Shown here one piece after another: positions 1 through 3,334 of a stretch of 3,334 nt of DNA. The DNA is from Escherichia coli. Lineage in GTDB: Bacteria > Pseudomonadota > Gammaproteobacteria > Enterobacterales > Enterobacteriaceae. The DNA lies in the NCBI RefSeq assembly GCF_003334785.1, contig NZ_QOWV01000051.1. One strand, 5' to 3'. A program made the translations under genes and the position numbers. How positions within the stretch are numbered: position 1 is the stretch's first letter; every line of letters starts with the position of its first letter. The notes below the pieces were generated by a model that did not search any database, was not told where the DNA came from, and saw nothing but the letters and a program-made list of their open reading frames with translations.

Positions 1-60
1 TGTCCGAAAATGTGTCTCATGGGCACCGTATGCGCCCAAACCGATCGCCATTCACTTTCA

Positions 61-74
61 TGCATAGCTATGCA
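61..74. promoter_or_regulatory. Perfect 14-bp palindrome TGCATAGCTATGCA, candidate ARG-box-like accessory-factor site of the cer-like region
   Basis: Seen in sequence: perfect palindrome about 105 bp upstream of the putative XerC arm. Position and partial match to the degenerate ArgR box pattern are consistent with ColE1 cer architecture (established knowledge), but the match is loose. Duplicated at 3318..3331 because of the circular overlap. Confidence 0.3.
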
Positions 75-174
75 GTGAGCTGAAAGCGATCCTGACGCAT
101 TTTTCCGGTTTTCGCTTGGTAAAACATCTCTTTTTGCGGTGTTCGCGGCAGAATCGCGTTCAGCGCGTTTTAGC

Positions 175-203
175 GGTGCGCGTAATGCGACGTTATGGTA
201 AAT
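175..203 (+). other. cer-like XerC/XerD site-specific recombination core (plasmid multimer resolution site)
   Basis: Seen in sequence: GGTGCGCGTAA-TGCGACG-TTATGGTAAAT. Right arm is identical to the ColE1 cer XerD arm as I recall it; left arm is one mismatch from the dif XerC arm GGTGCGCATAA. Central region is 7 bp (cer has 8, dif/psi 6). Accessory sequence would extend upstream across the wrap point. Confidence 0.5.
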
Positions 204-351: not shown

Positions 352-504
352 CTACTTAGATAACTGAGCCTTTACTGTATCTGCCCCTGCAAGCAGGAAC
401 CCAACAGTTAAGAACCACCCCCAGCCATTGATACCTTTTAGCGCTAGAATTGCTGCGCAAATGATGGCTGCTATAGGGACTATCTGGTACAGAAAATACT
501 TCAT
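352..504 (-). CDS. Hypothetical small hydrophobic protein (50 aa), possible membrane peptide
   Basis: Hand-translated ORF absent from the supplied track: ATG at 504..502 (- strand), stop TAG at 354..352. Product MKYFLYQIVPIAAIICAAILALKGINGWGWFLTVGFLLAGADTVKAQLSK has two hydrophobic segments. Weak SD-like GGGGT 7 nt upstream of the ATG; possible promoter GTGACA(561..556)-17-TCTCAT(538..533). Contains rare ATA and CTA codons. No recognisable family. Confidence 0.3.
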   Translation of the reverse strand: MKYFLYQIVPIAAIICAAILALKGINGWGWFLTVGFLLAGADTVKAQLSK

Positions 505-582: not shown

Positions 583-864
583 TTAGTGATAATCCTCGAG
601 ATCCACGTCAAAGACGTTAGGTTCTTCGAGCTTAAACACTACGCGCCAGTTTCCATTGACCTCTAACGAATACTCTCCTTGACGGTCTCCCTTCAATGGA
701 TGGCAGCGCAATGCCTTTAAATCCATCATATCCTGCAAGTTCGTCGCTGTGCTTAAGGCTGTTAGGATCAGCTTCAGACGTTGAGTAAACTGTTGCGGAA
801 TTCCTGCGTTGTTACCTGTTTCGGCAAACTTACGCAAACCTTTATGCTTGATATTTATGATCAT
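583..864 (-). CDS. higB: HigB-family toxin (plasmid maintenance system killer protein, RelE/ParE superfamily mRNA interferase)
   Basis: 93-aa ORF from the track. Motifs IKHKGL..F...G....GIP, HPLKGDR.G..S..VNGNWR and C-terminal DVD.EDYH match my recollection of the HigB/killer-protein family. ATG at 864..862 with GGTG SD-like sequence 4 nt upstream; stop TAA at 585..583. Confidence 0.85.
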   Translation of the reverse strand: MIINIKHKGLRKFAETGNNAGIPQQFTQRLKLILTALSTATNLQDMMDLKALRCHPLKGDRQGEYSLEVNGNWRVVFKLEEPNVFDVDLEDYH

Positions 865-1208: not shown

Positions 1209-1505
1209 ATGATTAATCTTGTCGATCCAGTACATCCAGGGGTTTTTATCCGTGAGATGTTTATGGAACCGTTTGAAATATCAGCCGCGGACCTGTCTGA
1301 AAAACTGCATGTATCACCTTCCACTCTAAGTAGAGTGCTGAATGGAAAAGCTGATTTAAGTGTTGAGATGGCATTAAGGCTTTCTCGAGTTCTTGGTCGC
1401 AGTGCCGAGTCGTGGATAAACATGCAGACTCAATACAGTCTTAACGCGAGCAGGAAGTCACCTAATGTCATTAAGGAATTAGATGAATTGGTTCCTATAT
1501 TTTGA
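1209..1505 (+). CDS. higA: HigA-family antitoxin (XRE-type helix-turn-helix addiction module antidote protein)
   Basis: 98-aa ORF from the track. N-terminal VHPG..IRE.F.EP...S...L...L.VS...LSR.LNGK..LS.EMALRLS...G.S.ESW.N.Q..Y.L matches the HigA-family HTH pattern as I recall it. ATG at 1209 with GAGGAAGG SD immediately upstream; stop TGA 1503..1505 followed by a terminator hairpin. Confidence 0.85.
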   Translation: MINLVDPVHPGVFIREMFMEPFEISAADLSEKLHVSPSTLSRVLNGKADLSVEMALRLSRVLGRSAESWINMQTQYSLNASRKSPNVIKELDELVPIF

Positions 1506-1579: not shown

Positions 1580-1683
1580 AACGAAAAAACCACCCGGCAA
1601 GGTGGTTTTTTCGAAGGTTCAGTAACCGGCAAGTTTCTGAACCAGGGTAACTGGCTTGGAGGAGCGCAGTCACCAAAACTTGT
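1580..1683 (-). ncRNA. RNAI: RNAI antisense copy-control RNA of a ColE1/p15A-type replicon
   Basis: - strand reads ACAAGTTTTGGTGACTGCGCTCCTCCAAGCCAGTTACC...AAAAAACCACCTTGCCGGGTGGTTTTTTCGTTT, closely resembling p15A RNAI as remembered, ending in a terminator hairpin plus U-run. Ends are approximate to within a few nt. Confidence 0.7.
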
Positions 1684-3053: not shown

Positions 3054-3102
3054 AAAAAAGCGGTGTCGGCGCGGTGTTGTAGCTGCGCCAACACCGCTTT
3101 TT
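3054..3102. terminator. Long GC-rich hairpin flanked by A6 and T5: candidate bidirectional intrinsic terminator
   Basis: Seen in sequence: AAAAAAGCGGTGT (3054..3066) pairs with ACACCGCTTTTT (3091..3102); inner GGCGC (3068..3072) pairs with GCGCC (3085..3089). Could insulate the cer-like site from incoming transcription (inference). Confidence 0.5.
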
Positions 3103-3257
3103 AGGGGTGGTACTGACTATTTTCATAAAAAACATCATTTTATATTAGGGGTGCTGCTAGCGGCGCGGTGTGTTTTTTTACAGGACGCCCCTGGGGGCGC
3201 TGCTAGGGGTGTCTGTTCAGATATGTAGCAATGAGTCAGGGATTCACGAACTGAAAA

Positions 3258-3334
3258 TGTCCGAAAATGTGTCTCATGGGCACCGTATGCGCCCAAACCG
3301 ATCGCCATTCACTTTCATGCATAGCTATGCAGTG
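3258..3334. repeat. Terminal redundancy: exact 77-bp copy of positions 1..77, indicating a circular molecule of about 3257 bp
   Basis: Checked base by base: 3258..3334 equals 1..77. The window ends at 3334, so the match may simply be truncated there. Confidence 0.9.

Follow-up and report, generated by a model that had tools for sequence, protein, structure and literature searches.

The locus raises the question whether the beginning of a small plasmid contig of Escherichia coli contains a site at which plasmid multimers are resolved, and whether the 7-bp central region of this site sets it apart from the sites already described. The window, by which the whole stretch of DNA analysed (3,334 nucleotides) is meant, consists of a 3257-bp circle and a 77-bp overlap. 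Bases 1-77 are exactly repeated at 3258-3334 (100% identity, spacing 3257), and therefore the molecule is a 3257-bp circle. The length of the overlap may, at a guess, reflect an assembler k-mer of 77. The repeated segment was considered as a second resolution site and rejected, because it is this contig overlap. The window is a ColE1-type cryptic plasmid. According to the plasmid records, its public copies are circles of 3255-3258 bp, and there are many deposits of identical or nearly identical plasmids, with E. coli, Salmonella, Shigella and E. fergusonii as their sources. The genes annotated in these copies are those of Rop, a HigA antitoxin and a RelE/ParE-family toxin. The features of the window outside the site are as follows.

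352-504, minus strand: strongly hydrophobic open reading frame of 50 amino acids (MKYFLYQIVPIAAIICAAILALKG…), just downstream of the core of the site
583-864, minus strand: gene of a RelE/ParE-family (HigB-like) toxin (weak RelE_StbE match, E = 0.007, below the cut-off)
1209-1505, plus strand: gene of the HigA antitoxin (TIGR02607 match, E = 7e-28)
1505-1543: hairpin with a T run, between higA and the RNAI/RNAII region
1581-1681, minus strand: RNAI of a ColE1-type replicon (91.3 bits)
1582-1613: hairpin with a T run, part of RNAI
3055-3102: inverted repeat with 18-nt arms (AAAAAGCGGTGTCGGCGC … GCGCCAACACCGCTTTTT), flanked by A and T runs
3101-3215: repeated GCTGCTAGGGGTG-like motifs, following the inverted repeat
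3258-3334, plus strand: terminal overlap of the linearised circular contig (100% identity to 1-77), including the palindrome of the ARG box at 3318-3331

RNAI is the only feature of the window that scores above threshold in Rfam, and no Rfam family matches the Xer site. The toxin and HigA genes are divergent and separated by 344 bp, whereas the usual arrangement of such genes is a toxin-antitoxin operon. The hairpin at 1505-1543 looks like the terminator of higA. The open reading frame at 352-504 is a putative gene, for which the NCBIfam search gives no match. The repeats at 3055-3215 may represent a bidirectional terminator, transfer-origin-like repeats or both, the second of these because the plasmid is typed as 'mobilizable' although it has no mob genes.

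The first-pass annotation placed a cer-like multimer resolution site at the start of the window, with well conserved arms, a XerD arm identical to that of ColE1 cer and a 7-bp spacer between the arms. The core of this site is composed of three elements.

175-185, plus strand: putative XerC-binding arm GGTGCGCGTAA, identical to the XerC arm of NTP16 nmr and to the dif XerC arm GGTGCGCATAA at 10 of 11 bases
186-192, plus strand: central region TGCGACG (7 bp), the predicted place of strand exchange; TGAGACG in NTP16
193-203, plus strand: putative XerD-binding arm TTATGGTAAAT, identical to the arm of ColE1, ColA, ColE3, CloDF13, NTP16 and pJHCMW1

Xer sites have two 11-bp arms, of which the XerD arm is better conserved and the inner bases are palindromic (…TAA / TTA…), with 6-8 bp between them (PMC11724359). 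The core, GGTGCGCGTAA-N7-TTATGGTAAAT, has this form of a XerCD recombination site (xrs). Its XerD arm is that of ColE1 (positions 3928-3938 of the ColE1 sequence, L003), and its XerC arm differs from the ColE1 arm GGTGCGTACAA at 3 positions. The exact 29-mer GGTGCGCGTAATGCGACGTTATGGTAAAT is present among the 183 unique enterobacterial Xer sites of Fournes et al. (PMC11724359 sup file 2). All three statements on the core are thus borne out by the comparison with ColE1 and NTP16, and the comparison with known Xer sites does not place the arms outside the XerC/XerD consensus.

The segment on the XerC side of the core contains the elements listed below.

20-174, plus strand: accessory sequences, a putative ArgR/PepA-binding region, assigned by homology to NTP16 nmr
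61-75, plus strand: ARG box, a putative single ArgR-binding site identical to the NTP16 box, with the palindrome TGCATAGCTATGCA at 61-74
100-135, plus strand: A/T tracts T5, T4, A4 and T5, centred at 102, 110.5, 122.5 and 133, in roughly helical phase

At 61-74, the sequence TGCATAGCTATGCA forms a perfect palindrome of 14 bp, which had been noted as lying where an ArgR box would be expected. The palindrome alone is weak evidence, because by arithmetic about 0.2 perfect palindromes of this length are expected by chance in 3.3 kb. It is significant because of its identity to the NTP16 box and its position. The box TGCATAGCTATGCAG is marked as a potential ArgR site in NTP16, and the box of the window is identical to it (PMC11724359 sup file 1). 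The distance from the start of the ARG box to the XerC arm is 114 bp, as in NTP16, and lies inside the range of 112-116 bp covered by 18 published ArgR-type accessory sequences. These two results confirm the earlier reading of the palindrome. The A/T tracts have a mean spacing of approximately 10.3 bp, as calculated from their centres. Resolution sites of the ColE1 type conserve phased A-T tracts between their ArgR and XerC sites, and their ArgR-to-XerCD orientation relative to RNAII is also invariable (PMC2831885). RNAI lies on the minus strand, and therefore RNAII lies on the plus strand, which is also the direction from ArgR to XerCD in the window. The site thus shows the features of an ArgR-type cer-like site: the spacing of a single ARG box, the homology, the A/T tracts and the fixed orientation.

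It had also been stated that the site spans the wrap point of the circular sequence. This holds for the nominal accessory region of 180 bp, which alone would reach the junction (approximately position -5). It does not hold for the conserved site. The conserved homology starts at approximately 20-36 and stops at 203/204, and therefore positions 1-204 contain the whole conserved site. For the most part, the wrap point is an artefact of linearisation, not a property of the site.

The closest relative of the site is nmr of the Salmonella plasmid NTP16 (NC_002090, 2141-2348). The two sites have the same XerC arm, XerD arm and ARG box, and both have a 7-bp central region and a 114-bp spacing between the ARG box and the core. 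Their central regions, TGAGACG in NTP16 and TGCGACG in the window, are one base apart. In the accessory region, 140 of the 154 bases to the left of the core are identical, and the approximately 14 substitutions fall in two short patches (approximately 113-120 and 144-150). The alignment of the two is nearly identical over approximately 36-205 and weaker back to approximately 1; on the right, past the XerD arm, NTP16 and the window are unrelated in both flank and cargo. The NTP16 site is listed as a 'previously characterized' Xer site (Fournes et al., NAR 2025, PMC11724359). The site of the window is assigned, on its sequence, to the nmr subtype of the ArgR-type cer-like family.

RefSeq and PLSDB records carry no annotation at the position of the Xer site, as might be the case if the resemblance were accidental or if the segment were a non-functional remnant without a role. 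This explanation is hardly credible. The core is unique in the window, being the one match to a dif/cer-type consensus pattern with 3 mismatches or fewer, and the expected number of matches to this pattern in 200 dinucleotide shuffles is 0.00, by which a chance match is ruled out. The near-identity to a characterised site over approximately 170 bp, the conserved spacing and the wide conservation on plasmids likewise argue against a remnant. Positions 20-203 (approximate left end) are therefore read as a probable multimer-resolution site of the NTP16 nmr type for ArgR/PepA-dependent XerCD recombination, with a probability of roughly 0.85. The near base-for-base match to nmr and the presence of the core in a published catalogue support the earlier reading of a cer-like resolution site as far as sequence comparison can do so.

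The relationship to cer itself is more distant. ColE1 cer shares the architecture of the site, namely an ARG box, approximately 113-114 bp of accessory DNA, a XerC arm, a central region and the identical XerD arm, as well as the orientation relative to RNAII, and the ArgR/PepA/XerCD mechanism is presumed to be common to both. In contrast, the central region of ColE1 cer, TTAAGGGA, is 8 bp, and its accessory region is identical to that of the window at only 62 of 154 bases in an ungapped comparison. With its 7-bp centre and a XerC arm other than GGTGCGTACAA, the site of the window differs from ColE1 cer in the strict sense.

Within ColE1 cer, a checkpoint RNA, Rcd, is transcribed from the promoter Pcer (PMC4393325), and homologues of Rcd and Pcer have been reported for several cer-like sites (PMC4393325, PMC2831885, PMC5935869). 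A site that belongs to this family and has its conserved orientation to RNAII might therefore encode an Rcd-like RNA from a Pcer-like promoter, in which case the 7-bp core would modulate the repression of this promoter by XerCD. The hexamers of Pcer are 15 bp apart (PMC5935869), and Pcer of ColE1 was placed, by deduction and consistently with this 15-bp spacer, at TTGCAT-N15-TAAAAT, overlapping the ARG box. The same position reads ATGCAT-N15-TGAAAG in the window and in NTP16, with 2/6 matches in the first and 3/6 in the second hexamer and no T at the last position of the -10 hexamer. A scan of 1-300 for consensus promoters and terminators gives none. The accessory region of the window lacks the block GGGTGGTTTGTGGCC, which is common to ColE1 and ColA and is found, at 2-4 mismatches, in four further published accessory sequences, and the RNA of 88-172 folds no better than its shuffles (z = -0.17). 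At the level of sequence, the Pcer/Rcd element of ColE1 cer in the strict sense is thus missing, and the checkpoint module does not appear to be recognisably conserved in the window. The site is not called ColE1 cer proper, and no Rcd checkpoint is claimed for it, because the promoter, the block, the terminator and a stable fold were not found. That it nevertheless encodes such an RNA is improbable.

The function of the nmr-type site is most likely ArgR/PepA-dependent dimer resolution initiated by XerC, as judged by homology with cer and nmr and from the general mechanism of such sites (PMC5357621, PMC2699498); from the same homology we infer that the proteins bind, that resolution depends on ArgR and PepA, and in which order the strands are exchanged. 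In a plasmid dimer, an ArgR hexamer would be bound to the ARG box (61-75) of two directly repeated sites, and PepA to the accessory DNA that flanks it. Interwrapping of the two accessory regions would limit synapsis to sites on the same molecule. XerC would bind to the arm at 175-185 and XerD to the arm at 193-203. The first strand exchange, by XerC, would take place between bases 185 and 186, and the resulting Holliday junction would then be processed either by XerD or by Xer-independent cellular processes, as is the case for cer and mwr.

The first-pass annotation assumed that the length of the spacer governs strand exchange and the dependence on accessory proteins. mwr of pJHCMW1 and the sites of ColE3, ColA and CloDF13 are of the ArgR type and dependent on accessory proteins; they share the XerD arm with the window and have an ARG box at 113-115 bp, but their central region is 6 bp. 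mwr is sensitive to osmolarity and supercoiling and is naturally inefficient in standard medium, and both mwr (6 bp) and cer (8 bp) stop at the Holliday junction, which is then resolved independently of Xer (PMC2699498). At psi (6 bp), XerC and XerD exchange both pairs of strands (PMC5357621). The outcome does not follow from spacer length alone, because mwr and psi are both 6 bp and have different outcomes; the assumption fails to this extent. psi of pSC101 is, like the predicted site of the window, a plasmid XerCD site with PepA-dependent accessory sequences, but ArcA takes the place of ArgR, the central region is 6 bp, and the XerD arm, TTATGTTAAAC, resembles that of dif. Chromosomal dif has two 11-bp arms around a short centre, as in the window, but this centre is 6 bp, and dif is activated by FtsK and has no accessory sequences. 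attP of the Vibrio phage VGJphi is 29 bp, and hence has a 7-bp centre as in the window, but it is an integration site and not a resolution site. In the accessible literature, the combination of a 7-bp centre and XerC was found for Vibrio phage attP sites alone, and an outcome of strand exchange at a 7-bp plasmid site was not found.

Similarity to nmr is no guarantee of efficient resolution, because the related mwr is naturally inefficient in standard medium. The site might therefore be a weak or decayed one that, like mwr in that medium, contributes little to stability, and the plasmid would then be maintained by its high copy number and its HigA/RelE-like toxin-antitoxin genes. The presence of a toxin and an antitoxin gene agrees with this explanation, and so does the ARG box: the consensus half-site is TGAAT, and both half-sites of the window are TGCAT. 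The 185-bp site is, however, 100% identical across different plasmid backbones and more than 50 E. coli records, and it shares its arms, spacing and ARG box with the characterised NTP16 nmr. The only difference between the two cores is one base in the central region, the sequence of which is not conserved among Xer sites (PMC11724359). A weak or decayed site is accordingly considered unlikely, and a working site of the nmr type is preferred.

The central region of Xer sites ranges from 6 to 8 bp (PMC11724359, PMC2699498). The catalogue of Fournes et al. contains 183 unique sites: 13 have a length of 30 bp, 27 of 29 bp, and all others of 28 bp. The 7-bp sites in this catalogue are outside the set that was cloned and tested in that study (PMC11724359). 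A genome scan was done with one genome per species and the pattern GGTGC-N4-AA-N(6-8)-TTATGGTAAAT, which gives at least 120 loci; the scan is biased, because this pattern demands GGTGC…AA and a XerD arm exactly as in cer. Unique cores with 6-, 7- and 8-bp centres number at least 37, at least 27 and at least 19, respectively, and those with an ARG-box-like sequence 108-120 bp upstream at least 27, at least 19 and at least 5. Among the loci listed, the 7-bp sites with an ArgR box are more diverse than the ColE1-type 8-bp sites. The exact core of the window is present in at least 2 of the scanned loci, and TGCGACG is found behind four other XerC arms in public genomes among the loci listed. The idea that the 7-bp spacer is a rarity was rejected on the counts of the catalogue and the scan. 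The unusualness implied by the earlier description of the central region gives way to a well-populated known class (27/183 in the catalogue). The site is of an already known kind, its sequence is already catalogued, and its 7-bp spacer is a common variant.

The spacing between the ARG box and the core was surveyed in 76 distinct combinations of accessory sequence and core among the scan loci listed (L004-L123), and is 113-115 bp in these 76 sites. Among these loci, the distance from the ARG box to the XerC arm is 115 bp in 34 of the 40 distinct 6-bp sites, but 114 bp in 22 of the 24 distinct 7-bp sites; it is also 114 bp in 11 of the 12 distinct 8-bp sites. The surveyed sites are related by descent, so that these counts do not amount to a statistical test. 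One base less in the spacing offsets the extra base in the centre, and therefore the distance from the ARG box to the XerD arm is 132 bp in both the 6-bp and the 7-bp classes. This compensation is the one hint that goes beyond what is already described. That the 7-bp sites are a functional class set apart by its geometry, and not a neutral variant in length, is improbable.

The right boundary of the site coincides with a change in the relationships of the plasmid. Matches to positions 1-1560 of the window are found in 655 plasmid records, of which 23 cover at least 80% of this segment. Among the 60 listed, nearly all of the others end at 203/204, and a few end at 180-185. The matches of heterologous plasmids begin at 1, 26, 35 or 49 and end at 203/204. 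pColG and pEC886 are 100% identical to the window leftwards for hundreds of bases and unrelated to it rightwards from base 205. An accessory sequence identical at 154 of 154 bases is joined to the same core and another right flank in two loci (L066, L104). Among the loci L124, L125, L066, L104 and L127, plasmids with a 100% identical ori-rop-accessory backbone lose all similarity directly after the XerD arm (203/204). These sequences suggest that the core marks the junction between the backbone and exchangeable cargo.

Hybrid cores are also present. In CP057355.1, the accessory sequence of the window is joined to the ColE1 core GGTGCGTACAA-TTAAGGGA, and the nmr-type as well as the cer-type XerC arm is found with each of TGCGACG and TTAAGGGA, so that all four combinations exist. 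Such cores would be expected if heterologous sites underwent exchange where XerC cleaves. The pattern fits the title of Zakova & Szatmari 1995, reportedly a cer x nmr study. From the module junctions and the hybrid cores we infer that the site may be used in nature, and homologous recombination in the backbone, which is conserved, could also give rise to the module-junction pattern.

Of 5426 complete E. coli genomes, 344 carry the site family, and 400 of its 405 places are on plasmids. Cer-like cores with ARG boxes are also present on small contigs of assemblies labelled Streptomyces, Streptococcus, Corynebacterium, Bradyrhizobium, Zoogloea, Arthrobacter and Microbacterium; the carriers of these out-of-place cores are L012, L014, L016-L018, L047, L066, L073, L075, L077 and L083. 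A 1570-bp 'Bacillus anthracis' plasmid (PLSDB NZ_CP047109.1) has a cer-like core with an ARG box as well. The cores in non-enterobacterial assemblies are most likely contaminating DNA of enterobacterial ColE1-type plasmids.

The finding means that a very common 3.26-kb cryptic plasmid of E. coli, Salmonella and Shigella probably carries a standard Xer site of the nmr type. It is of practical value to recognise this site, which flags the boundary between backbone and cargo here, since Xer sites are never annotated in the RefSeq and PLSDB records. Should the compensation between spacing and central region be under selection, ArgR and the XerD arm would be the two points between which the synapse is measured. 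The register of the XerC arm would then be tunable, and would set the cooperativity of XerC and XerD and whether XerD completes the exchange. It would also decide which co-resident plasmids recombine with each other.
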